The notes beneath the pieces are model-generated. The model was not told the origin of the DNA. It saw only the letters and a program-made list of their open reading frames with translations, and made no database searches. Below are positions 40,788 to 64,000 of a DNA stretch of 64,000 nucleotides, one piece after another (position 1 is the stretch's first letter; every line of letters begins with the position of its first letter). Source of the DNA: a virus. Taxonomy: Duplodnaviria > Caudoviricetes. The stretch is from IMG/VR virus record IMGVR_UViG_3300009424_000011, positions 32,805 to 96,804 of that record. One strand, written 5' to 3'. The position numbers were made by a program, and so were the translations under genes.

Positions 40788-42581
40788 TTACAGTGCAGTA
40801 ATCGGAGCGGTGGACGAGAAGCGATCGATCTGCACCATGCAGGCCGTGGTCGCGTCGCGGAAGGCGCTGAACTCCAGCGACTCCATGACATCCTGATCGA
40901 GGCCGCCCGGTGCGATCGGATCGCTGGTGACCTTGAATGCTGGGATGGTGAAGTAGTAGGTGTTCTTGTCCTGATCGATGATCGGGAAGGTGAGGCTGAC
41001 CGTCTCGTGGTTGATGAAGCGATCATACATTTCACCGTCGGCGAAGTAGGCTTCGATCGTGCCAGTGAGGTTCAGACGGCCAGCAGCGATGCCGACCGGG
41101 AACTTCGAGCCGATGGCCTGCTGGTTGCGCAGGTTGCCTTCGATCGAGAACTGGATCGAGTTGATCGCGGTTGCCTGTTCGACACCGTTCACGGTCAGAG
41201 CGCCGACGTTCGCAGTCGCCGAAACGACTTCGGTTGCCGGGGCTTCGAGCGCGGTATAAGCAGCGCCAGTCAGCTTCTCGGTCGAGGCGCGCTTGGTAGC
41301 GCGGCCCATGAGAGTGGACTGACCGGTGACGATCGAGCCGGCAGCGACTTCCATTTCGATACCACCGCAACGCAGGCCGTCCACGGTGAAGAACTGGCTC
41401 ACGTCTTGGAAGCCGGTTTCGATCGATGCCGATTGCGGCGTAATGTCGGCGCTGTTGCCCGGATTGCGGAGCATCGAGCCCTTGATCGTGATCGGGCCAC
41501 CAGCAGCGATTGCCGGGACAGCGCGATCCAGAACGAGGGTGTCATCGGTCAGCGAAACGATGGTGTAGAAGCCGCCGTCCGTTGCCGAGCCACCAGTGAA
41601 GTCAACAACCGCGAGGGTTGCCGCGTCTTCGGTCAGGACGCCGCCGACCTTGAGGAGGTTGCGAACCGTAACGACGCCCAGTGCCGAAGTGGCCGAGAGA
41701 GCAACGGTTCCGGTCGGGCGCAGCGCGTTGATTGCAGCCGCCAGATTGGTTGCGGTTTCGGTGTCGTCCGCGCCGATGTCGAAATCGAGGTCGGCTTCCA
41801 GAGTAACGGTATCAACGCCGTCAGACAGCGTGACAGTATCACCGGCGACAACAGTGTTGGCCGTGATGGTTCCGGTCTCGTAGCCGATGCCTTCGACGAA
41901 GATGCGCTGACCGGTCTTCAACTGACCAGCAGCGATCGCAGCAGCAAACGGGTTAGCGCCTTCACCGTCGATGGTGTTCGGCGAGTTACCGAAACGAAGG
42001 GTGGTCGCACGCAGGATGATGACATCGTTTGCGTCGGCGACAGTTGTGTTCGGAGAACCGGCTTCAACCACCAGCGAAGTGCCAGTGACCACGATGTCGG
42101 TGTTTCCACCCGCGAACGCGACGCTGCTGATCTGGAGATAGTCGTTGTTCGACGGGTTCACGAAACCGCTGGTCTTGATACGACGGCCGACAGTGAAGTA
42201 GGCTGCCACATCAGCGCCGCTGATGCGGACGGTGTTGTTGGCTGTGATCGAGACAGTCTTACCACGGAACACGTCCCAGTCCATCGGACGCGACCACGCA
42301 CCCATGAGGGTGCGTTGGAAGTCGAGGTCGGTCGTGCCGGCTGCAAATTCCCAAGCGATCTCGCCGCCCGACATTGCAGCGGTTTCGATGACCGAGGAGA
42401 TCATGCGGTCGTCCCGGATTTCCTCCGACTCAACGGTCTCCTTCGAGGCCGTGATCGAGGACGTGCGGAAACGACGGGCGCGGGTAACACCTGCTGCCGG
42501 GGTCTCGCCCCACGCGTTGTTGGATTCGATGATCTCGCGGAGCGAAGCGCGGTTGCTATCGGCGAGCAGCTTGTTTGCCAT
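40788..42581 (-). CDS. major tail tube protein (with inserted Ig-like/extra domain)
   Basis: ESEEIRDDR...GGEIAWE, SIETGF.DV.QF...G, I.G.IEAYF...YD.F pattern of phage tail tubes. Confidence 0.85.
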   Translation of the reverse strand: MANKLLADSNRASLREIIESNNAWGETPAAGVTRARRFRTSSITASKETVESEEIRDDRMISSVIETAAMSGGEIAWEFAAGTTDLDFQRTLMGAWSRPMDWDVFRGKTVSITANNTVRISGADVAAYFTVGRRIKTSGFVNPSNNDYLQISSVAFAGGNTDIVVTGTSLVVEAGSPNTTVADANDVIILRATTLRFGNSPNTIDGEGANPFAAAIAAGQLKTGQRIFVEGIGYETGTITANTVVAGDTVTLSDGVDTVTLEADLDFDIGADDTETATNLAAAINALRPTGTVALSATSALGVVTVRNLLKVGGVLTEDAATLAVVDFTGGSATDGGFYTIVSLTDDTLVLDRAVPAIAAGGPITIKGSMLRNPGNSADITPQSASIETGFQDVSQFFTVDGLRCGGIEMEVAAGSIVTGQSTLMGRATKRASTEKLTGAAYTALEAPATEVVSATANVGALTVNGVEQATAINSIQFSIEGNLRNQQAIGSKFPVGIAAGRLNLTGTIEAYFADGEMYDRFINHETVSLTFPIIDQDKNTYYFTIPAFKVTSDPIAPGGLDQDVMESLEFSAFRDATTACMVQIDRFSSTAPITAL

Positions 42582-42661: not shown

Positions 42662-42725
42662 ATGGTAAACGAAAATGGTTAACGTGTCAAGCGAGAATGT
42701 CGTTCACGCAGCCATAATGTCGGTG
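42662..42725 (-). promoter_or_regulatory. tail tube promoter with two upstream boxes and a TTAACCAT in the spacer
   Basis: CACCGACATT...GAACGACATT-CTCGC-TTGACA-CGTTAACCATTTTCGTT-TACCAT. Confidence 0.6.
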
Positions 42726-47044: not shown

Positions 47045-47169
47045 ATTGAAAAACTCCTAGAGAGTGGTGGTTGGTCGTCGGTAGCCTGAGGGGTTGATTG
47101 ACTAACCCCGACAGGCTACCAAAGCCGGGGTGATCTCGTGGAACTGACGACCGACCGAAGCCGTTAACC

Positions 47170-47958
47170 TTAACGACCCTTGTTGCCGTTGGTCTTGTTC
47201 GCCAGTTCAAGGCGTTGCATGGGCGAAAGCTGGGCGATCTGAGCAGCGGTCATGCCGCCAATCTTCTCTTCCTTGCCACCAGCAGCGCCGCCGCCGGTAT
47301 TGCCCTTGAAGTAGTGGGGCGCTTCGTCGCGGAGCTTGATGAGCCATTCGGAAACGCTCATCGGGCTTGCGCCGTCGCTGCCGTAAATCACGCTTTCGCC
47401 GCGCTTCGGAACCAGTTGTCCGTCCTCGATCTTGAAGAGACCGTAGGCACGCTGGAGAATGTCCGGCAGGGCCTGAGGCTGGACACCACTTTCCGGCACG
47501 ATGACGGCCGCTGTGACTTCCTTGTCGATAACAGTGCGGTTCAGTCGCTCGGTGAGCGTCTGGGCCTTCTGCTGGTATTCGGTCAGTTCCTTGCGGAGCG
47601 CCTTCGAGTTTTCGTCGTAGCCATCCCGGAGAACCTTGATGCGGTCCTGAACCGCAGATTCGATCTGGTCGTCGGTCTTGAGTTCCCCGTCCTTCACCCG
47701 CTGGGCGATGTCGCGGAGACCGTTGAGGTCATTGACGAAGGCATCGAGGTCTTCGCCGGCGATTTCCTGAACACGGGCGAGGGTCGGAGTGACCGCTTCG
47801 AGCCGCTTGCTCAGGTCGATATTCTTTTCACGAAACTCGACGAGCTTCTGGTTGGGGACGACATTGACGGCGAACTTGCCGGACTCTTCGTCAGCCTTGG
47901 CATACTCGCGGAGTTCCGCCGGAACTTCTTCGAGGGTGTTGAAATTGATAATGGGCAT
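47170..47958 (-). CDS. capsid scaffolding protein
   Basis: Coiled coil; LEEVP...Y...G.F...EFR..NI.L and APHYF...GGGA.G pattern; directly upstream of the capsid gene. Confidence 0.75.
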   Translation of the reverse strand: MPIINFNTLEEVPAELREYAKADEESGKFAVNVVPNQKLVEFREKNIDLSKRLEAVTPTLARVQEIAGEDLDAFVNDLNGLRDIAQRVKDGELKTDDQIESAVQDRIKVLRDGYDENSKALRKELTEYQQKAQTLTERLNRTVIDKEVTAAVIVPESGVQPQALPDILQRAYGLFKIEDGQLVPKRGESVIYGSDGASPMSVSEWLIKLRDEAPHYFKGNTGGGAAGGKEEKIGGMTAAQIAQLSPMQRLELANKTNGNKGR

Positions 47959-54413: not shown

Positions 54414-54551
54414 GTCATTTCTCCGTTTGCGGTGATTCGGTTTTTCCAGAAAAGGCCGATTCGGTCAAGCACTTTTTCCAGAAAATCCCGATTTTTAGGG
54501 TTAACGAATTTCGCCGTTTTATTAAGGTTAACCAGAGATTACCGCCAAAGA

Positions 54552-54580
54552 AAAAGCCCGATTCGGCGAATCGGGCTTTT
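54552..54580 (-). terminator. intrinsic terminator
   Basis: AAAAGCCCGATTCG-G-CGAATCGGGCTTTT; the stem itself contains GANTC sites. Confidence 0.75.
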
Positions 54581-54586
54581 CCGGGA

Positions 54587-54862
54587 TCAGGCTTCCGGGG
54601 CTTTCACCGGATAGGCCCGAATCATCGGGCACAAACGGCCCTCGGCATTTTCCGGGTAAAATTCGGTTCGCACCAGATCGGCGACCTTATCGGCAGCTTC
54701 CCAGCTTTCAGCGCTGAAACGAATCGTTTTCGGCTGATTCGACCAGCCGAAGTGATAGGCGAGTCGGGGATTGTGAAGGCCGCACTTTTTCGCGGCGGCA
54801 AGCAGTTTTTCCGGATTCTGCCCGTCGCTGATGCCCGAGCCTGTCAGTTCGAATCTTTCCAT
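54587..54862 (-). CDS. early hypothetical protein
   Basis: GGAG RBS; own promoter module. Confidence 0.7.
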   Translation of the reverse strand: MERFELTGSGISDGQNPEKLLAAAKKCGLHNPRLAYHFGWSNQPKTIRFSAESWEAADKVADLVRTEFYPENAEGRLCPMIRAYPVKAPEA

Positions 54863-55050
54863 GGTCTGGCTCCGTTTCCAGTGATTCGGGTCTAAACGCG
54901 CCAGCCGATTCGGTCAAGCACTTTTTCCACTTTGATGGTTAACGATTTCGGCCGATCGGTTAAGGTTAACCTGAATTTACGATTTTGGAGCCCGGCCCCT
55001 TTTCTCAGTGAATTAGGGTCCCGGCCCCTGTTGTCAGGGGCCGGTTCCTG

Positions 55051-55248
55051 TCAGGCCATCAATTCGGCGAGTAATTCATCATCGCTCAGCTTGTCAGTCC
55101 CAGACTCGGCGTTCATCCGGGCGATTTCTGCGAAACAAGCCTTGCGGTGGGCGCGGGCCTTGCGCTTGGCGGCAGGCGTTCCGAATGCAAGGATCATGTC
55201 GCAAAGGTCGAGGTCGGCGGCCATTGCTTGTTCGGTGGAATTGCTCAT
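55051..55248 (-). CDS. early hypothetical protein
   Basis: GGAGACAGACC-ATG; own promoter module. Confidence 0.7.
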   Translation of the reverse strand: MSNSTEQAMAADLDLCDMILAFGTPAAKRKARAHRKACFAEIARMNAESGTDKLSDDELLAELMA

Positions 55249-55404
55249 GGTCTGTCTCCGTTTCCAGTGATTCGGGTCTAAACATACCAGCCGATTCGGT
55301 CAAGCATTTTTTCCACTTTGATGGTTAACGAATTTAACCGTTTTGTTAACCTTAACACCCGGTTACCAGACAAAGAAAAGGGCGGGATTTCTCCCGCCCC
55401 TTTC

Positions 55405-55599
55405 TCAGATGATCCGGCGTCCGGTCTGTTGGATTTCCCGGCCATGTGCGGTGAAGCGCGGGCCGGTGTATTCGGTTGGGTTGGGGATATGCTTGCTTGC
55501 CTGTTCGGCGGCGTGAGCGGCGAGTTCGGCGCGGGCCTTGATGATTGCCACGGTGGCGGTGATCAGGAAGGCGATTGCGAGGATCAGGATGGTGGTCAT
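55405..55599 (-). CDS. early single-TM protein
   Basis: MTTILILAIAFLITATVAIIK...; GGAGA RBS. Confidence 0.65.
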   Translation of the reverse strand: MTTILILAIAFLITATVAIIKARAELAAHAAEQASKHIPNPTEYTGPRFTAHGREIQQTGRRII

Positions 55600-55666
55600 T
55601 TGCTTGTCTCCGTTTCGATGATTCGTTTTCGCATAGTCCATCGATTCGGTCAAGCACTTTTTCCAC

Positions 55667-55867
55667 CTAATAGACATATTCCTGATGAAAATCGCCGTTT
55701 TCGTCCGTCCAGTCTTGGCGAATATCGACGTGCAATTCTTCGATCTCGTCCGGCTCATAATGGCCGCGCTGATAGGCGAATGCCTCCCGCAAGGTGAGAA
55801 AGTGGGTGATGTCTTTTTCGCCTTCATATCCGGCGTTTTCCACGATAACGAATCGGCGGTCTGTCAT
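55667..55867 (-). CDS. early hypothetical acidic protein
   Basis: GGAGG RBS; coupled to the upstream gene. Confidence 0.65.
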   Translation of the reverse strand: MTDRRFVIVENAGYEGEKDITHFLTLREAFAYQRGHYEPDEIEELHVDIRQDWTDENGDFHQEYVY

Positions 55868-56028
55868 TGATCTTCCTCCCGGCGGATGGTCTGGCGGCGC
55901 TCTTCCATCTTACCTTGTGCGATGATGTCAGCCACGCATTGATTGACGTGGCGGCGGCGCTCTTCGCCCATGCGGCGTTGAACGATTGCCCGGTCGCGCT
56001 TGTGGCGATATTCTGCCAGCGTTTCCAT
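55864..56028 (-). CDS. early basic hypothetical protein
   Basis: METLAEYRHKRDRAIVQRR...; TAATG overlap. Confidence 0.55.
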   Translation of the reverse strand: METLAEYRHKRDRAIVQRRMGEERRRHVNQCVADIIAQGKMEERRQTIRREEDQ

Positions 56029-56270
56029 TAGCGGCGATTCTTGCGATAGCGGTGGGGATACTGGCGGCGCAAGTTTGCGTCGTCGTGCAGCGCCAGCATC
56101 GACAAGGCGGGCAGGCAAAGCCCGCACATAGCAAGGGCGTTAAAGAGCATCTGGGTGACGGTCCGGGCCTCAGGGGCGAGCGGGGTTAGGTCAATGTTCG
56201 CTGTCATGTAGAAAGCACCATAACCAGCTAAAAGGCCGAGGGCCATAAGGGTTGCAGAAAGAAAACGCAT
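56028..56270 (-). CDS. early two-TM membrane protein
   Basis: GGAGACAGACC-ATG; two hydrophobic helices. Confidence 0.65.
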   Translation of the reverse strand: MRFLSATLMALGLLAGYGAFYMTANIDLTPLAPEARTVTQMLFNALAMCGLCLPALSMLALHDDANLRRQYPHRYRKNRR

Positions 56271-56393
56271 GGTCTGTCTCCGTTGTTTGTGATTCGGGTC
56301 TAAGGTGATTCGCTGATTCGGTCAAGCACTTTTTCCAGCTAATTGGTTAACTAATTCGGCTGATCTGTTAACCTTAACACTGGGTTAAGGCCA

Positions 56394-56418
56394 AAAGAAA
56401 AGGGGCCGAAGCCCCTCC
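56394..56418 (-). terminator. recurrent terminator AGGGGC-TTCG-GCCCCT-(C/T)TTT (similar copies near 57321, 58131, 59290, 62291, 63611)
   Basis: UUCG hairpin (UUUG in the 62291 copy) plus U tract on the - strand. Confidence 0.8.
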
Positions 56419-56420
56419 CC

Positions 56421-56633
56421 TTATGCTGCCCGGTAGTGTTGCAGGCGAGTGATCCGAAGCCCCTGCTGTCCCGAGCGATCCAGCGACTTACGCCAGCCAG
56501 CAAACTCTTCGCTTGTGATGTTGTGCAGGCTGCAAACGTCTTCGAGGGTGGTGGTGCCGTTGTCCACATCGGCGATGATGGCGGCTTTGCGCTTTGCGGT
56601 GTAGCGAGCGGTGGTCTTGATCTTGATCTTCAT
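56421..56633 (-). CDS. sciP: SciP / DUF1153-family CtrA inhibitor homologue
   Basis: RYTAKRKAAIIADVDNGTTTLEDVCSLHNITSEEFAGWRKSLDRSGQQGLRITRLQHYR matches the DUF1153 pattern RW..RRKA.VV.AV..G......AC..Y.L..EEF..W...I.R.G..GLR.TR.Q.YR (recalled, not searched). Confidence 0.8.
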   Translation of the reverse strand: MKIKIKTTARYTAKRKAAIIADVDNGTTTLEDVCSLHNITSEEFAGWRKSLDRSGQQGLRITRLQHYRAA

Positions 56634-56753
56634 TGTGTGTCTCCGTTGCTGTTGATTCGTTTCTAGGATGGTTAACTGATTCGGTCAAGCACTTTTTCCA
56701 CTTTATTCTTAATTCGCGTTAACCTTAACAAATTCATCAATTCCGTTAAGGAA

Positions 56754-56972
56754 TTAGCGCTTTCGCGCCAATCCCCTCGCGGTCAGGGCTGCTGCCAGCC
56801 GAGTCCAGTCGTCAACGGTGTTGTGCCAAGGGCCGATGTTGAGAGCCCGAATCATGTTGTTGAAAGGCACGGTGCCGACTTGGCGGACGTAGTTTGCGGC
56901 TTGGCGATCAATTTCCTCCTCCGAGGCTCCAGCCGCGATTGCCTTGGCGATGGCATCTTTCTTGCTGATCAT
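56754..56972 (-). CDS. early hypothetical protein
   Basis: ATGA overlap; GGAG RBS. Confidence 0.65.
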   Translation of the reverse strand: MISKKDAIAKAIAAGASEEEIDRQAANYVRQVGTVPFNNMIRALNIGPWHNTVDDWTRLAAALTARGLARKR

Positions 56973-57130
56973 GCCGCGATCTCCACGATGATGAACGTGA
57001 CGGGCCCAGCATAGGCCACGGAAAGGATTTCTTCGCCTTCCACTGCCAGCACGTTTGCGGCGATGAAAGCGGCGTTGATGTGATTGGCTTCGACCTTGTA
57101 GGTCCGCAGGGTGGTCTTGACTTCGAACAT
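56969..57130 (-). CDS. early hypothetical protein (53 aa, not in the ORF track)
   Basis: MFEVKTTLRTYKVEANHINAAFIAA...; AGGAGA RBS. Confidence 0.6.
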   Translation of the reverse strand: MFEVKTTLRTYKVEANHINAAFIAANVLAVEGEEILSVAYAGPVTFIIVEIAA

Positions 57131-57337
57131 AGCCTGTCTCCTGTGTGAGTTACCGGGCGAGCCTTGCTGCTGCTCTGCCAGTCAGTAGGTGCCGCCCGGT
57201 GATTCGGGTCTAGGGCGATTCGCTGATTCGTGCAAGAACTTTTTCCACTTCAATTTCACTTTGATGGTTAACAACTTCGCCCGATCGGTTAACCTTAACG
57301 TGGGGTTACCGGGCAAAAAGAGAGGGGCCGAAGCCCC

Positions 57338-57682
57338 TCATTTCCAGCGCGGATGCGATCCGGGATCGACTCCAAGTTCTTCCATGATGAGGCGGCGAAT
57401 CCTGCTGTGTTCCGCATTCATCACCATGGAAAAATGAACGCCTGACACGTCGTCGCAGTCCCTGCCGCCGCGTAACGCTATTGCAATGTGATCAAGCCCC
57501 TTGAGAGCCCACCAGAGATGCATAAGAGCATCTTCCATGTCGAAGGGGTCCGACTTCTCTCCGGTCTCTTTCTCGCGCTCTTTGAGGCGACAGAATTGCG
57601 AAGCGGCTATGCCGATGATGCGAGCAGCAAAGGGCTCGATCTGGGCCGAGTCGAAAGTCACGGGGCGGATGCGGTCGCTCAT
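57338..57682 (-). CDS. early hypothetical protein
   Basis: Coupled ORF ending at a terminator. Confidence 0.65.
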   Translation of the reverse strand: MSDRIRPVTFDSAQIEPFAARIIGIAASQFCRLKEREKETGEKSDPFDMEDALMHLWWALKGLDHIAIALRGGRDCDDVSGVHFSMVMNAEHSRIRRLIMEELGVDPGSHPRWK

Positions 57683-57861
57683 GCTGCCATGCTCCAGCGG
57701 TCGCGCTCATACAGACGGGCGATTTCCTCAGCGCCCGAGCGGGTCGAGTCGCATCCGAGCCAATCACCACAGAAGCGGGCAACCCATTGCTGCGTCGCAC
57801 GTCCGCACCATTCGAGGCGCACGCTATAGCGGGAGTCGAGGGTGTTGCGAGCGCGGCTCAT
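57679..57861 (-). CDS. early hypothetical protein
   Basis: ATGA overlap; YSVRLEWCG...WVARFCGDWLG. Confidence 0.6.
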   Translation of the reverse strand: MSRARNTLDSRYSVRLEWCGRATQQWVARFCGDWLGCDSTRSGAEEIARLYERDRWSMAA

Positions 57862-57989
57862 GCCGCCACTCCCCGATGCTTGGGGTTGCGGCGGAAAGAG
57901 CCCTTGCCTTTACGAGCGCGAACCTTGCGAGGGGCGAGGTGAGCGCTGGCGAGCGAGGCGGCAATGGGATTCTTGCGGATGTTTTGCAT
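57858..57989 (-). CDS. arfA: ArfA-like alternative ribosome-rescue factor (43 aa, not in the ORF track)
   Basis: MQNIRKNPIAASLASAHLAPRKVRARKGKGSFRRNPKHRGVAA; N.I.A.L...R.....KGKGS(Y/F).R..KH with ArfA spacing; GGAGA RBS; first gene behind a promoter module. Confidence 0.7.
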   Translation of the reverse strand: MQNIRKNPIAASLASAHLAPRKVRARKGKGSFRRNPKHRGVAA

Positions 57990-58151
57990 GATCTGTCTCC
58001 GATTGATGATTCGTTTTCGCACGAGTCACCGATTCGGTCAAGCACTTTTTCCACTTTGATAGTTAACCCCAAACGTCAATTTGTTAACCATATTCGTTAA
58101 GGTTAACAAATTTCACCGGGCAAAAAGAAAGAGGGGCCGAAGCCCCTCCCC

Positions 58152-58256
58152 TCAAACCTTGGCCTTAGCGCGCTGGCGCGCTTGCCGGTAAGACACCGCC
58201 GAGATGATCCCGGAAAAGGTGTTGTTGATGTAAACGTGGTAGGTGTTGATCTGCAT
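58152..58256 (-). CDS. 34-aa early peptide (not in the ORF track)
   Basis: MQINTYHVYINNTFSGIISAVSYRQARQRAKAKV; GGAGG RBS; own promoter and terminator. Confidence 0.6.
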   Translation of the reverse strand: MQINTYHVYINNTFSGIISAVSYRQARQRAKAKV

Positions 58257-58368
58257 GACTGCCTCCGTTGCTGTTGATTCGTTTCTAGGCGAACCAACCG
58301 ATTCGGTCAAGCACTTTTTCCACTAATTACAAAAAAAAAAGTTTGGTGAGGGACCTAAGCCCCTCGCC

Positions 58369-58635
58369 TTAGTCGTCTGCCAGCTTTCCAACGTAGCAAT
58401 ACGAATTGTATTGTTCCGGGTGAATTTCGCCGTCCTTACACAGCATGTCCGACCAGTTGCTAAATTCTTCATTGATAGCAACCGAATCGTTTTCGCCGTA
58501 GTGTGCGATCACATCGGGAAGCACTTCTTCGTCAAAGCGCTTGGAAAGCTCCTCTTCGCTGGCAATCTGGCCGTTGTCCTCGGCGTAGAGTTCCACCATT
58601 TCGAGGGTGTCCACGCGATCCCAGAAGCCAGCCAT
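58369..58635 (-). CDS. early acidic hypothetical protein
   Basis: MAGFWDRVD...NWSDMLCKDGEI...; TAATG overlap. Confidence 0.65.
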   Translation of the reverse strand: MAGFWDRVDTLEMVELYAEDNGQIASEEELSKRFDEEVLPDVIAHYGENDSVAINEEFSNWSDMLCKDGEIHPEQYNSYCYVGKLADD

Positions 58636-58721
58636 TAGCGGCGGCCCTTTGCGATCCACGAGGAAAGAATGGCGATGCGCGCACGCTTGGCGGCAAGGCG
58701 GCGTTTCTGGTGTCGGCTCAT
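58635..58721 (-). CDS. 28-aa basic early peptide (not in the ORF track)
   Basis: MSRHQKRRLAAKRARIAILSSWIAKGRR; GGAGA RBS. Confidence 0.5.
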   Translation of the reverse strand: MSRHQKRRLAAKRARIAILSSWIAKGRR

Positions 58722-58888
58722 AGTCTTTCTCCGTCCGCTTGATTGCGGTGATTCGTTAGTGCCAGTCTAAGCCGATTCGGTCAAGCAGTTTTTCCACTTA
58801 CTTTTCACTTTGATGGTTAACAAATCCCGGCCGACCGTTAACCTTAACAAACCGTTACCAGCCAAGAGGCGGGCCGAAGCCCGCTCCC

Positions 58889-58981
58889 TCAATAGAGATG
58901 CGATTCGCATTCAGGTGAAACAGGGTCGCCCCAATCGCAATCCAGTTCCTTGATCTGGCTGTCCAACCATTTACCATTCGG
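58889..58981 (-). pseudogene. 5'-truncated gene remnant between an intact promoter and terminator
   Basis: The frame PNGKWLDSQIKELDCDWGDPVSPECESHLY* has no RBS or start and begins right at the promoter's CCGAAT. Confidence 0.4.
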
Positions 58982-59210
58982 GTATGGACCGATTCGCTGA
59001 TTCGGTCAAGCACTATTTCCACTTTGATGGTTAACAAAATCAGCCAATCTGTTAACCATATTCCTTAACGGATTCGGCCGCCGGCGTTAACCTTAACAGA
59101 TTGGTCAGTTTCGTTAACCATCTGCTGGTGGGGAGCGTGGGGCTCGGTCGGCTGGTTCGGTCGGTCGGTCCGGGCTCCTGCAAAATGGCGGCGATCATGA
59201 AAATCGAAAT

Positions 59211-59272
59211 GATCCAAACCCAAAACCGGGGCGATCCAAAGTCGCGTCGATCCAAAGCGGCGGTGATCCAAA
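59211..59272. repeat. four GATCCAAA direct repeats
   Basis: At 59211, 59233, 59249 and 59265. Confidence 0.75.
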
Positions 59273-59310
59273 ACGACCAAAAAGCAAAGAGGGGCCGAAG
59301 CCCCTCTCCC

Positions 59311-59586
59311 TTAGTCGCCTTGATAGTCCGGTGCAGCTTCATAGACGAAGTTGGCTTCCGCCCGCCGGATTAGTTCGGCTGTGTTCCAGCCTCTTTCGTG
59401 GGCCACATGGAGCAAATCACCGATAAGGTCTTGGATGGCCGTGTAGTCGTCACCCTCACCTTCTTCGCAGTCGGCGCATTGCGCTTCAAGCGTCGAGTAA
59501 GGCCGTCCGCCATAGGTTTCGATGGTGAAGGTATCGAGGGCGTTCTTTGCCCAGTCGATCCGGGATTGATTGGCTTCGTGCATCAT
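59311..59586 (-). CDS. early hypothetical protein
   Basis: AIQDLIGDLLHVA...A..NF..E motif; coupled ORF. Confidence 0.65.
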   Translation of the reverse strand: MMHEANQSRIDWAKNALDTFTIETYGGRPYSTLEAQCADCEEGEGDDYTAIQDLIGDLLHVAHERGWNTAELIRRAEANFVYEAAPDYQGD

Positions 59587-59870
59587 CCTACATCCTCTTC
59601 TTCGCCGGTCAGTTCCTGCACCAGACAGACATAGGGGCGAGTCGCGCTGTGGTTGATGGTCATAGCAGGGCTCAGCGACAGTTTCGGCATATCAGGGCCA
59701 TAGGTTTCGCCGGTCACGAACAGGTCGTCTGCCACTTGCTGGCGGCGGTCGGAAAATTCGATGTAGTCCCCTTGAAGGGCGCTAATCTTTTCCCGTGCGT
59801 CGTCTTCGTTCTCAGCGATCACATAGGCGGTCGCGGTGATGCTAATGTCCGCATTGTAAAGTTTGGGCAT
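59583..59870 (-). CDS. early hypothetical protein
   Basis: MPKLYNADISITATAYVIAENEDDAREK...; AGGAGA RBS. Confidence 0.65.
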   Translation of the reverse strand: MPKLYNADISITATAYVIAENEDDAREKISALQGDYIEFSDRRQQVADDLFVTGETYGPDMPKLSLSPAMTINHSATRPYVCLVQELTGEEEDVG

Positions 59871-60087
59871 TGGTCTGTCTCCTGCGCTTGAGTGCGCCTG
59901 ATTCGTTTGCCCGTTCCCAGCGATTCGGTCAAGCACTTTTTCCACTTTAATAGTTAACTCATTTCATCAATTTGTTAACCTTAACGATTGGTTACCAATT
60001 TGGAAACCCGGCCCTTGTTCTCAGTGGGCCGGGTCCCGCCGGTGTTTGGAAACCCGGCCCCTGTTCTCAGGGTGCCGGGTCCCGGTA

Positions 60088-60393
60088 TTAGATGGCGTAG
60101 AGCCGGGCATGGAGCCCGGTCAAAGCTTCCACATCAATGGAGCCGCCCAGATCGTAATTGCTCTGACGTGCAACCCGCTTGCTGAGGTCTGCCATGGCCC
60201 CGCTCAGACGTTCCGCCGGTGTGCCCGAGCAGTAGTAGCCGCCACCAAAGTAATTGCGTTCGGTGCCTGTCTCCCGGTCGGTGTTGTAGTTGTGGACCAC
60301 AAACTCTTCGCGGTTTTCGTTGTAGCGCAGCGCGATGCCGCCCGGCATGGTCATGTCATCGCCACGGGTCGGGATTTCAAAAAGTGTCTTCAT
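60088..60393 (-). CDS. early hypothetical protein
   Basis: MKTLFEIPTRG...; AGGAGACAGACC-ATG. Confidence 0.65.
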   Translation of the reverse strand: MKTLFEIPTRGDDMTMPGGIALRYNENREEFVVHNYNTDRETGTERNYFGGGYYCSGTPAERLSGAMADLSKRVARQSNYDLGGSIDVEALTGLHARLYAI

Positions 60394-60562
60394 GGTCTGT
60401 CTCCTGTTTTCCGGTCTCTTCCGGTAAACCCTGATTCGCATTTTCCAGCGATTCGGTCAAGCACTTTTTCCACTTTGAAGAATGGTTAACACGATAGACC
60501 GATTCCGTTAACCTTAACGAATGTTTACACCCAAAGAAAAAGGCGGGTTGCCCCGCCTTTCC

Positions 60563-60961
60563 TTATTCGCCGAGATAGAACATTCCGACAAAGGCTTGCA
60601 GGGCCTCGTCTTCCTGTTCGGTGGTGTCATGGTAGGTGGTCCACGGCGTGCCCCAGTCCTGCCACTGCAAGAAAGGTTCGCCGCCGATGTCACCATATAC
60701 CCGCAAGGCCGGTCCGCCGGTCGAGAGCAGAATCGCGAACTCTTCCGGCTCCGATTCGCCGCCCGGTGCCCGCCATCCGTCGCGCACTTCCACGGAAAGC
60801 GGCATTTCCTGAATCCGGTTCTGCACGTCGTCCGGGTCGGTGAAGGTCTCCCCGTCGAACTCAGCCGATTCGGCTCCGTCGTTCAGGGCTTCCAGCGCGG
60901 CCATCGCCCCGACGATTGTCGAGAGCCAGCCCCGTGCATTGCTGATTGCGTGTTCGCTCAT
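60563..60961 (-). CDS. early acidic hypothetical protein
   Basis: MSEHAISNA...ILLSTGGPALRVYG...LQWQDWGTPW; GGAGA RBS. Confidence 0.7.
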   Translation of the reverse strand: MSEHAISNARGWLSTIVGAMAALEALNDGAESAEFDGETFTDPDDVQNRIQEMPLSVEVRDGWRAPGGESEPEEFAILLSTGGPALRVYGDIGGEPFLQWQDWGTPWTTYHDTTEQEDEALQAFVGMFYLGE

Positions 60962-61182
60962 TTGGTTTGTCTCCGTTGTTGGTGATCCCGGTCTAGGGTG
61001 ATTCGCTGTTTCGGTCAAGCACTTTTTCCACTTCAAAGTTGGTTAACAAGTGAAACACTTCTGTTAAGGTTAACGAACCGTTACCAGAAAGAAAAATGCC
61101 GGGGTGCATGATGCAACCCCGGCGGCGATGATCAGTAAGAACACACCCAGCAGCAGCCGGGCCACGGCGTCAAGGCAGCCCA

Positions 61183-61539
61183 TCAGCTTCGCAACTGTCG
61201 AGGGTCGCGATCCCAGCAAAAGATACGCGCAAGGCGTTCGTAGCTTGCCGGTGTGATGTTGTCCGACGGGTGCAGCGATTCATAGGTTTCAGCACCTGTT
61301 TGATAATCGCGGTCCGGGTCAATTGTGGAAAACCAGCGACCGGAATCCTCCATGCCATTACGGCCTAGGTATTGTTCAGCGTCCCGCAAGCTCCACTCCA
61401 AGTCTGAGTCATCCAGTTCATCGACCTGTTCGATTGATACCTTCATATGGAAGAAACGAGCCGGAAGGACGAATCCCCGTTCTTCGGCGTCGCCTTGTTC
61501 GGCGCTTTCCGGGGTCACAATTTCGTAAGTGATTCGCAT
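61183..61539 (-). CDS. early acidic hypothetical protein
   Basis: MRITYEIVTPESAEQGDAEERGF...; AGGAGA RBS. Confidence 0.7.
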   Translation of the reverse strand: MRITYEIVTPESAEQGDAEERGFVLPARFFHMKVSIEQVDELDDSDLEWSLRDAEQYLGRNGMEDSGRWFSTIDPDRDYQTGAETYESLHPSDNITPASYERLARIFCWDRDPRQLRS

Positions 61540-61709
61540 GGTCTGTCTCCTTTGTGGTGATTCGTTGGTGCCATTATCCACTGATTCGGTCAAGCACTTT
61601 TTCCACGATTAACAACCCACCCCTATTTGTTAAGGTTAACGGGTCCCTACCAGAAAAAGGTGAGGGGCAGGGCGACCAAACCCTGCCCCTCTGCCGAGAG
61701 CCCGAAGGC

Positions 61710-62156
61710 TCAATCGGCCGGAGTCAATTCCTTGTGGCGCTCTTTCTCCACGTATTCACGGGCGACAGCGAAGCCCATATATTCACGGGCCGTTTCCTGC
61801 CACGCCGCCCCAGCGATGAACGGGGTTTCGAGCGTCGCCACGTCTGCCTTGACGACAGCCTTGGCGTATTGATCCAGCGCCTGAAAGATGAAGGCGTGCA
61901 TCAACGGGGTCTTGCACCACGTCATGACCAGATTCATGAACTCGACATTGGTCAGCGCGGATTCCGGGTGCGGGTGCAACTCGCATCCATCAACCCGGTG
62001 GGTCTTGCCGTTCACGTCTGTGACGGTCCAGATGTCTTCGTTTTCATCAACACACCGCCCGATCGTGACGGTCTGCTTGGGGATGTAAACCCCAGTGGTC
62101 GATTCGCCGCCGTTGAAGGTCGTTTCGCGGCGCTTGAAAAGTGAGGCGTCTTGCAT
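61710..62156 (-). CDS. early hypothetical protein
   Basis: MQDASLFKRR...TNVEFM..VM; AAGGAGA RBS. Confidence 0.65.
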   Translation of the reverse strand: MQDASLFKRRETTFNGGESTTGVYIPKQTVTIGRCVDENEDIWTVTDVNGKTHRVDGCELHPHPESALTNVEFMNLVMTWCKTPLMHAFIFQALDQYAKAVVKADVATLETPFIAGAAWQETAREYMGFAVAREYVEKERHKELTPAD

Positions 62157-62312
62157 GGTCTTTCTCCTTCCGGCTCCGTGCCGGTGATTCGGTAATAGGC
62201 CGGTGATTCGATTCACGCAAGCACTTTCTCCATTTATTTTTCCAGTGGTTATCGGGCTGTTAACCTTAACGAATTTTTACAGACAAAAAGAGAGGGGCCA
62301 AAGCCCCTCCCC

Positions 62313-62564
62313 TCAGCGCGGGTTGGCCGGTCGAGAGCCGCCAACCCGTGGGAGATTGACCCCGTGCCATTCGAAGGCATGGGGCTCTTCCCGTGATCCG
62401 ACCGGGCTCGCGCCAGCTACCTTGAAGATCATTTCGGGCGTTTCGTCCGGCATTTCGTAATGGTCTCGCCAGACTTGAGTCACTTCCGCCACCGTGTTGG
62501 CAACCACGAACAAGTCGTAGTTTTCGCCGTTGAAGTGAGCAACGAAAAATAGCTTCATGTTCAA
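62313..62564 (-). CDS. early hypothetical protein
   Basis: GAGGAG RBS; coupled ORF. Confidence 0.6.
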   Translation of the reverse strand: MNMKLFFVAHFNGENYDLFVVANTVAEVTQVWRDHYEMPDETPEMIFKVAGASPVGSREEPHAFEWHGVNLPRVGGSRPANPR

Positions 62565-62833
62565 TACTCCTCGTGGCCGGTCCAGAACTCAGCGTGCCGT
62601 TCGCAGAGGGCGTTAAGCGCCTCTTTGTGATCATCCGAGAACCGATCCCAGAAGTCAGCGACCGAATCCATACCGTGGCAGGGCTCTTCCGATACTTCCG
62701 GCGACGGGGCCTTGTAATCGTTCACACAACCCCAAAGGGCGCTGTAAAGGCCGGGAACGGCGTCAACACCATCCCAACACTCAGCTACTTCGTCCGGGCG
62801 GATGTGGCTGAAATCTGCTGCTGCTTTGATCAT
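62561..62833 (-). CDS. early acidic hypothetical protein
   Basis: GGAGACAGACC RBS; own promoter module. Confidence 0.65.
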   Translation of the reverse strand: MIKAAADFSHIRPDEVAECWDGVDAVPGLYSALWGCVNDYKAPSPEVSEEPCHGMDSVADFWDRFSDDHKEALNALCERHAEFWTGHEEY

Positions 62834-63024
62834 TGGTCTGTCTCCGTTTCAACTGATTCGTTTCTAGGCGGTGCAAGCGATTTGGTCAAGAACTTTTTCC
62901 ACCGAACTCCACTTGTTGTTAACCTTAACGAATGGTTACCAAAAGAAAAGGGGCTGGCACGCGGCCAGCCCAGTTGCAAGGATAAGGAAGAGGACGCCCA
63001 CACCTAGGCGGGCGAGTGCGTCGA

Positions 63025-63474
63025 TCAATCCGATGTCTCGTCCTCCTCTTCCGGAACGTTCCACGTAATGAGGAACCACGCTTGACAGTATTCCTCGCAG
63101 CCGAAGCCGTCGTCCTCTTCGTCGCGGAAATCCAGCGAAGGATCGAAAGCTTTCCGGTCCAGTTCCATGGGATGAACGTCCACAAACGCACGCAGGATCG
63201 CTTTCCGAGCCTTGTCGTGGTCATAGCCAGCACGCTCACCAGCCAGATCGTAAGCCACCGAGTCGAACTCGCTCAGCAGTTCGTTCTTGACTTCACCGAT
63301 GGAAGTATCGCCGAAGACGATTGCGCCCAGCAGCAATTCGCCATCGCGATTGTGGTGGTCATTCAGAAAGGATGAAAGACAGGTATCGATATGAACGCAG
63401 GCGAAGCCGTCGTCCGATTCGTCGCGGCGAGCTTGTAGTTGCTCTTGCACCGAAGGTAGGAAAGGTGATGACAT
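63025..63474 (-). CDS. early acidic hypothetical protein
   Basis: MSSPFLPSVQEQ...; GGAGA RBS. Confidence 0.65.
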   Translation of the reverse strand: MSSPFLPSVQEQLQARRDESDDGFACVHIDTCLSSFLNDHHNRDGELLLGAIVFGDTSIGEVKNELLSEFDSVAYDLAGERAGYDHDKARKAILRAFVDVHPMELDRKAFDPSLDFRDEEDDGFGCEEYCQAWFLITWNVPEEEDETSD

Positions 63475-63633
63475 TTGGTCGTCTCCAAGCGCGGAATTGC
63501 GCTGAACTCTTGATAGGCGAGTCGTAGGTGATTCGCAAGCCAATTCGTCCAGAAGTTTTTCCACTTAGTTACCACGCTGTTAAGGTTAACGGCTGGTTAC
63601 CGGGCAAAAAGAGAGGGGCCGAAGCCCCTACTC

Positions 63634-63873
63634 TCAATCTTCGAAGTAGAGGTCCAGCAAGGCTTGTGCGGCCTCTTCCGTGGTGTCGAAGGGACCGCTC
63701 CAATCAGTGCAATCGAGATAGCCCGGAGCCGAGAGGCGTGCATAAATCTTGTCGTCTTCCAGATCGAGCCCGGCTTCCATAATCGCTTCCTGAATGTCCG
63801 CACCCATGTAGGATTGCGGCTTCATGAATGAGTCCTTGGCGGCTTCCTTGAGGCGTTCAATAGCTGTTTGCAT
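63634..63873 (-). CDS. early acidic hypothetical protein
   Basis: MQTAIERL...YARLSAPGYLDCTDWSGPFDT.EEA; GGAGACAGACC-ATG. Confidence 0.7.
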   Translation of the reverse strand: MQTAIERLKEAAKDSFMKPQSYMGADIQEAIMEAGLDLEDDKIYARLSAPGYLDCTDWSGPFDTTEEAAQALLDLYFED

Positions 63874-64000
63874 GGTCTGTCTCCGTTTCAACTGATTCGT
63901 TTCTAGGTGACCCAAGTGATTCGGTCAAGCACTTTTTCCACTTTGATGGTTAAGAAGATCGGCCGGCACGTTAACCTTAACGATAGGTTACCGGACAAAA

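Follow-up and report, generated by a model that had tools for sequence, protein, structure and literature searches.

A phage-borne, arm-less relative of SciP and a candidate SciP/CtrA-type switch in its promoter array

Introduction

SciP acts in bacteria as an inhibitor of the master regulator CtrA. Among the regulators of the alphaproteobacterial CtrA circuit it is the least understood one. From the top sites occupied in Caulobacter, ChIP-seq yielded the consensus (G/A)TTAACCAT(A/G) (Fumeaux et al. 2014, PMC4083442). This word is half a CtrA box and often overlaps CtrA sites; whether SciP reads the DNA directly or rides on CtrA is disputed (PMC4083442). R35 and R40 of Caulobacter SciP are reported to be needed for binding to CtrA (Gora 2010, as cited by others).

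Parts of this circuit have been met in phages before. Clusters of CtrA-binding sites are described in alphaproteobacterial phages and are discussed there under the term "lytic deferment" (Mascolo et al. 2022, PMC9437464). That article also cites phage-encoded circuit parts: phages of the phiCbK type carry GcrA, and CcrM-like methyltransferases are known from Sinorhizobium phages. Alphaproteobacterial phages with host CtrA sites, among them a Sphingomonas phage with a GTTAACCAT repeat, and phage copies of GcrA and CcrM are, hence, already known. We found no description of a phage-borne relative of SciP in the literature.

We here discuss such a relative. If the reading favoured below is true, SciP would be the fourth circuit part borrowed by phages, after CtrA sites, GcrA and CcrM, and the idea of CtrA-sensing phages would be extended to marine Sphingomonadales. 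A natural minimal SciP, a dense set of candidate sites and the culturable pair of phage XM05 and Erythrobacter sp. JL475 would make the question of DNA reading by SciP directly testable.

The phage, its relatives and its likely host

The window, i.e., the whole 64-kb stretch of DNA that was analysed, belongs to an IMG/VR virus record of 96.8 kb, a fragment that is 57% complete. The record is that of a phage, as is evident from portal, major head, tape-measure, tail, RNR and NAD-ligase genes (PHROGs). Among 50,697 phage records its only nucleotide relatives are the Erythrobacter phages XM05 and vB_EliS-L02, the latter being a CbK-like prolate siphovirus (PMC9127768). The initial annotation had proposed a survey of phage genomes for the protein family at issue, DUF1153. 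Among the 50,697 sequenced phage records, a detectable homologue of the 70-residue protein is present in XM05 only, where it is labelled hypothetical and takes the second place in an operon. Two other short DUF1153 proteins, used as queries against IMG/VR, brought up no arm-less relatives. In the genome of XM05, between the large terminase and the portal gene (74-100 kb), about 40 small hypothetical genes lie on the same strand, and the packaging/structural module is thereby split by an array of small genes.

The likely host is Erythrobacter- or Sphingomonas-like. The host family was taken as Sphingomonadaceae on the basis of 86% identity to a protein named from Sphingomonas endophytica. A full-length copy of SciP is found in 117 of 121 genomes of this presumed family, and CtrA scores above the NCBIfam cut-off in the one genome of the family that was tested. 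According to the literature, CtrA controls motility in Erythrobacter- and Sphingomonas-like hosts, not an essential cell cycle. The phage resembles those with GcrA or CcrM copies in that an alphaproteobacterial phage carries a host global regulator of the CtrA/GcrA/CcrM/SciP circuit. The regulator, however, is a different one: neither GcrA, nor an N6/N4 methyltransferase, nor an OmpR-type/CtrA-type DNA-binding protein was found to be encoded in the 96.8-kb fragment (57% complete).

In 25 of 30 sciP genes of the presumed Sphingomonadaceae, a conserved element GTTAACC-N6-7-TTYAG-N6-GGCAAA was seen, most often 91 nt before the ATG. It looks like a conserved CtrA-type sciP promoter.

The SciP-like protein

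The protein of 70 amino acids is encoded on the minus strand from 56421 to 56633, stop codon included, as called from the open reading frame and the Pfam and NCBIfam matches. A longer N-terminus is impossible, because the -35 hexamer of the gene's own promoter contains a TGA in frame and no other start codon occurs between this TGA and the ATG. The initial annotation had described a phage-borne protein that keeps the RKA, C, EEF..W and GLR.TR.Q.YR signatures of SciP and appears to lack its N-terminal extension. The reading frame and an alignment with nine close relatives bear this out: the signatures are kept and are invariant, or nearly so, in these relatives. The profile search against DUF1153 (PF06627), likewise proposed there, gave a match with E 6.5e-20 and 71.5 bits (cut-off 23.5), with residues 6-68 covering positions 25-87 of the 87 in the profile; the domain scan of the record itself agrees. 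Since the alignment starts at profile position 25, about 25 N-terminal profile positions are absent, and the TGA bars any extension that could supply them. What is missing is a conserved arm of about 30 residues (VIGP.G.PLTL..LPP..T), which is present in the proteins of Caulobacterales, Hyphomicrobiales and Sphingomonadaceae.

An exhaustive profile search brought up 2,902 relatives, and DUF1153 occurs in 128 of 301 genomes in a class-level tally that includes one unpublished genome. A profile made from the protein and eight close relatives matches two DUF1153 family members in the PDB, the NMR structures 2JRT (E 2e-11) and 2OA4 (E 3e-10). The AF2 model predicts three helices (residues 13-24, 30-36 and 41-58) with a helix-turn-helix (HTH) at a mean pLDDT of 78.5. 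Foldseek against the PDB also lists 2JRT first, yet the match is weak (E 0.56), since a protein of this small size does not allow a firm assignment of the fold.

How close to SciP the protein still is can be judged from the SciP equivalog model NF051866 of NCBIfam. The phage protein scores 67.7 bits (E 7.5e-19), which is below the cut-off of 100, and its relatives score 52-64. Host SciPs reach 140-144, and when trimmed to the corresponding core of 63 residues they still attain 108-110. Truncation alone therefore does not explain the failure, because the equally shortened host cores still pass. The core is about 44% identical to bacterial SciP. Of 38 core columns that are conserved at ≥90% in host SciPs, 23 are retained and 15 are changed; W36>Y, R39>K, E43>A and Y62>H belong to the latter. 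The changed columns and the score below the cut-off suggest that the specificity may have drifted. Retained, on the other hand, are the residues implicated in CtrA binding: R35 and R40 of Caulobacter-type SciP (numbering from the 93-residue Caulobacter segnis protein) align with R10 and R15 of the phage protein, and both are invariant in its nine closest relatives. The equivalent of R40 is missing in the 64-residue subclade of XM05. Judged by these comparisons, the phage protein is a diverged, arm-less member of the SciP family and no orthologue. The earlier designation as a SciP homologue thus stands as far as the family, DUF1153/SciP, and the two arginines are concerned; equivalence to SciP it does not reach, even if the truncation is allowed for.

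A FastTree phylogeny (68 core columns, 225 sequences) unites the phage proteins with one metagenomic 75-residue protein in a monophyletic clade (support 0.90). They form one long branch that falls within no host clade. Outside the phage group, nine of the ten top matches belong to the clade that holds the SciPs of Sphingomonadaceae.

The gene is under purifying selection. Its dN/dS ratio ranges from 0.03 to 0.66 against seven relatives, with dS values up to 0.96.

The promoter array and the promoter of the SciP-like gene

The gene is embedded in an array of 18 promoter-gene-terminator cassettes on the minus strand (54430-64000), which were recognised by promoter core and consensus. The 18-mer core occurs 18 times in the window, with 0.08 copies expected, and it is the same in the array promoters of XM05. 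These promoters are putative, being called from repetition and consensus. A scan for E. coli-type promoters did not flag them, because their -10 boxes are CTAGA-like, not TATAAT-like. GANTC, the methylation site of CcrM, is used by GcrA-dependent promoters; here it is found at +6 in 16 of the 18 promoters and at +30 in 12, and many have a third copy in the spacer. A 12-mer, GTTAAGGTTAAC, consists of a GTTAAS hexamer in tandem and is found in either orientation; its exact copies number 17 in the window (expected: 0). Apart from the SciP-like protein, which is the only array product with a recognisable domain, the 20 other open reading frames of the array are without a Pfam match.

The 12-mer usually lies about 21 bp upstream of a proximal GTTAAC. 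One copy was seen outside the array, at 47163-47174, about 120 nt before the gene of the major head protein.

The promoter of the SciP-like gene can be read on the minus strand from its distal end. The 12-mer GTTAAGGTTAAC (56718-56729) is 12 bp nearer to the -35 hexamer than at its modal position of -53, because the word that is usual at -25 is missing here. There follow an A-rich, UP-like block, GTGGAAAAAGTGC (56689-56701), which belongs to the 18-fold repeated promoter core, and, from the same core, the -35 hexamer TTGACC (56683-56688). A GANTC site (GAATC, 56678-56682) adjoins the hexamer; a second copy (56654-56658) is situated just past the -10-like box. The latter, CCTAGAAAC (56659-56667), is of the CTAGA type and conserved in position across the array promoters; from its resemblance to alphaproteobacterial sigma-70 -10 boxes we presume that it functions as such. 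The 14-nt spacer of this putative promoter holds the word GTTAACCAT (56668-56676), with TTAACCAT at 56668-56675, which corresponds to the SciP ChIP consensus and to a CtrA half-site. Downstream, a Shine-Dalgarno sequence, GGAGA (56640-56644), precedes the ATG by 6 nt as part of a ACGGAGACA..ATG module common to most cassettes of the array. A terminator-like hairpin with a UUCG loop and a U-run (56393-56422, minus strand; -20.5 kcal/mol, z -2.35) overlaps the stop codon.

A little further on, the plus strand displays the full CtrA-box pattern TTAA-N7-TTAA (56374-56388). It is the sole copy in the 64-kb window, and it is kept near the SciP-like gene in three relatives, although the N7 differs. 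Its place is between the terminator of the gene and the distal 12-mer of the next promoter.

The word and its positions

That, among the array promoters, this one alone has a CtrA half-site (56668-56675) between -35 and -10 had been noticed in the initial annotation. Among the 18 array promoters, the SciP-like gene's is indeed the only one with the word in the spacer. What is peculiar, however, is the position only: the word is a half-site, yet it also equals the SciP ChIP-seq consensus and recurs in many array promoters. Relative to the T of TTGACC, it starts at -25 in four of them, at -36 in two and at -29 in one. In the promoter of the SciP-like gene alone it starts at +13, and the upstream copy is missing there. 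The positions -36 and -25 differ by 11 bp, i.e., one helical turn, due to an inserted AAGTGAAA-type repeat. XM05 shows the -25 mode again, and none of its 22 recognisable array promoters contains the word in the spacer. Outside the array, the window has one more promoter of this kind (minus strand, 42662-42690), TTGACA-17-TACCAT, with GTTAACCAT in the spacer directly after the -35 hexamer. It lies upstream of a gene for a minor tail protein (40788-42581), and three related IMG/VR contigs have kept it.

The spacer word has been maintained over considerable divergence. TTAACCAT is identical in all eight distinct relatives that have an own promoter for the gene, with proteins that are 71-97% identical and dS values reaching about 0.96. 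In the same relatives, the single bases on either side of the word vary, as does the stretch from the distal 12-mer to the UP-like block, and the spacers of the two neighbouring promoters differ at several positions. The word itself appears to be under selection, because it is invariant while its flanks and the neighbouring spacers vary. In XM05, the promoter upstream of the homologue is devoid of the word.

By number, too, the word stands out. TTAACCAT occurs 12 times in the window versus 0.95 times expected, a count reached in none of 100 shuffles. The 9-mer GTTAACCAT is found 11 times in the 96.8-kb record, ten of these copies being within about 6 kb of the array, and 34 times in the complete genome of XM05; there, 33 copies cluster in the 20-kb array that also contains the homologue (13% of the genome), and the reversed control word is absent. 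The 3' flank of the word is here C or T, as opposed to the A/G of the published consensus. Full CtrA boxes are scarce: TTAA-N7-TTAAC does not occur in the window, and TTAA-N7-TTAA is represented by the single copy already mentioned. Another SciP motif, TGTCGCG (Tan et al., as cited by others), is found seven times in the window, where 15.7 copies would be expected, and not once in the array.

Three presumed Sphingomonadaceae genomes contain four to ten copies of the 9-mer each, which is not above the reversed-word control. Caulobacter segnis, for comparison, has 11 copies versus one of the control. The 9-mer may be no word of the host CtrA/SciP regulon in the presumed host family.

Comparison with known systems

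The closest known system is SciP of Caulobacter crescentus and other Alphaproteobacteria. The phage protein shares with it the three-helix HTH core, the C-terminal GLR.TR.Q.YR signature and the equivalents of R35 and R40; an association with (G/A)TTAACCAT(A/G), the mark of SciP-bound Caulobacter promoters, may be shared as well, to judge from the location of the sites. It differs in being phage-encoded and arm-less, in its core identity of about 44% and in its score below the equivalog cut-off. The control regions differ as well. The wiring of the phage copy departs from that of the CtrA-activated host sciP: the promoters of the host family carry the GTTAACC-containing element about 91 nt before the ATG, whereas the phage copy has a consensus -35 and the word in what would be a repressive position.

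The phages considered for lytic deferment, among them the Sphingomonas phage vB_StuS_MMDA13 with its TGCGTTAACCAT repeats, resemble the present one in that CtrA-type words are strongly clustered in intergenic promoter regions, as is the case in CbK-like and Sphingomonadales phages, and are positionally skewed (33 of 34 copies in 13% of the genome in XM05). Here, however, the words are half-sites of the SciP type, not full TTAA-N7-TTAA boxes, and they are distributed over a cassette array, not over terminal repeats or a gap region. Moreover, the present phage encodes a SciP-family protein, whereas PMC9437464 reports none for any phage.

A more formal analogy is that to autoregulation by Cro/CI or C-proteins. 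There, as here, a small HTH gene has a conserved candidate operator in its own promoter spacer. The family is a different one, however, and the candidate operator consists of one asymmetric 9-mer, which doubles as a half-site of a host response regulator; this suggests a composite host-phage complex, not a site for a symmetric dimer.

Possible function

Probably, the phage has its own switch of the SciP/CtrA type, because the word is located in the promoter of the SciP-like gene and also next to many of the phage promoters nearby. We give an even chance to the view that the arm-less SciP-family protein is a repressor that acts at GTTAACCAT words, regulates its own synthesis and perhaps silences CtrA targets of the host. 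The protein would dock on host CtrA at the TTAAC half-site, as Caulobacter SciP does, or contact the word itself. At its own promoter, the occupied spacer word would block RNA polymerase and thus establish negative autoregulation; we call the position repressive because a site extending across the -35/-10 spacer is suited to exclude the polymerase. At many of the other array promoters, the same complex, bound at the word about 25 or 36 bp upstream of the -35 hexamer, would modulate and probably shut off transcription. CtrA-activated host genes for motility and pili may be silenced too, since the arginines that contact CtrA are retained. Autoregulation is favoured because the product belongs to the sole family known to be tied to the word and is the sole array protein with a recognisable domain.

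Some of the data presented above count against this view. With 67.7 bits instead of 100 and 15 of 38 conserved core columns changed, the specificity of the protein may no longer be that of SciP. The XM05 subclade is without the R40 equivalent, and the XM05 gene is without the word in its promoter. The lack of enrichment of the 9-mer in the three genomes of the presumed host family and the dispute over DNA reading by SciP count on the same side. Also, the words could be occupied by CtrA and SciP of the host, with no need for a phage protein.

A more elaborate version of the repressor model is conceivable, and we consider it unlikely as a whole. Host CtrA~P, present only in the motile, infectable state, would occupy GTTAAC half-sites at dozens of promoters in the phage genome. 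As the arm-less SciP accumulates, it would join CtrA on the GTTAACCAT words and shut off these promoters, its own and that of the tail gene included, and silence the motility regulon of the host. Without the arm, the phage copy would escape whatever control is exerted on host SciP, e.g., by proteolysis.

Alternatively, the phage protein might, in line with the initial annotation, be directed against the host only, a view that we regard as possible, if on the doubtful side. It would bind host CtrA and silence genes of flagella, pili and chemotaxis, whereas the words in the phage DNA would be read by host CtrA or host SciP as a sensor of cell state, as in lytic deferment; the purpose, by the same tentative reasoning, might be superinfection exclusion or holding the cell in a given state. 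The kept equivalents of R35 and R40 speak for such a role, and so does the presence of CtrA and SciP in the likely host family. Also, the relatives are CbK-like phages, and in other alphaproteobacterial phages clusters of CtrA sites, including the GTTAACCAT direct repeat of Sphingomonas phage MMDA13, are bound and used by host CtrA. Yet a purely host-directed protein leaves unexplained why the word occupies the spacer solely in the gene's own array promoter and is kept there in eight relatives. Nor does the near absence of the full CtrA box fit well (TTAA-N7-TTAAC 0, TTAA-N7-TTAA 1). It is, further, hard to see what would be gained from a diverged copy when the host already has a full-length SciP, and the conserved arm is missing.

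The weaker ties to SciP are taken up by another view, which we deem rather improbable: the protein may be a generic phage HTH regulator, derived from a DUF1153 or IS3-OrfA-like fold, with another site or role and no tie to CtrA, while GTTAACCAT and GTTAAGGTTAAC would be bound by some other host or phage factor. The sub-equivalog score, the many changed core positions, the position on a long branch outside the host SciP clades, and the lack of enrichment of the word in presumed host genomes are all in line with this, as are weak secondary matches to transposase HTH families. It would, however, make a coincidence of the fact that a SciP-family protein and the SciP ChIP word share an array of 10-20 kb in two diverged phages, with the word being conserved in the gene's own promoter, and none of the 20 other array ORFs encodes a recognisable DNA-binding protein. 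The secondary matches could also mean that the gene is a mere remnant of an IS transposase (OrfA-like HTH) with no role in the phage; this we hold to be very improbable. Apart from the JGI name "transposase-like protein", there is just the HTH_Tnp_1 match in Pfam, which at 29 bits is slightly above its cut-off, while DUF1153 reaches a far higher 71.5. No DDE/rve ORF is nearby, the neighbours being small cassette genes, and the gene keeps its own promoter, ribosome-binding site and terminator. It is, moreover, found in syntenic position in at least eight related phages, with a dN/dS of about 0.3. An identity as IS3 OrfA is close to refuted: the NCBIfam IS3 model yields 17 bits versus a cut-off of 160, and the flanks of all relatives are free of transposase ORFs.

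Further observations

Some minor observations on the array may be added. ArfA is alternative ribosome-rescue factor A. A precomputed Pfam match to it was noted for a 45-residue ORF that is located about 1.1-1.2 kb upstream of the SciP-like gene in related arrays. In the window itself, one copy of the array promoter core (57225-57242, three mismatches) precedes about 90 nt in which neither a clear ribosome-binding site nor a clear ATG is seen ahead of the next small ORF; this stretch (57130-57242, minus strand) might represent a long leader or else a small RNA.

The 16-mer TTGACACGTTAACCAT of the promoter upstream of the minor tail protein gene, together with a -10 box at the right distance, was also seen in unrelated viral contigs, an AT-rich group included. 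The number of matches, about 27, could be near chance for a 16-mer; the promoter context, however, recurs.
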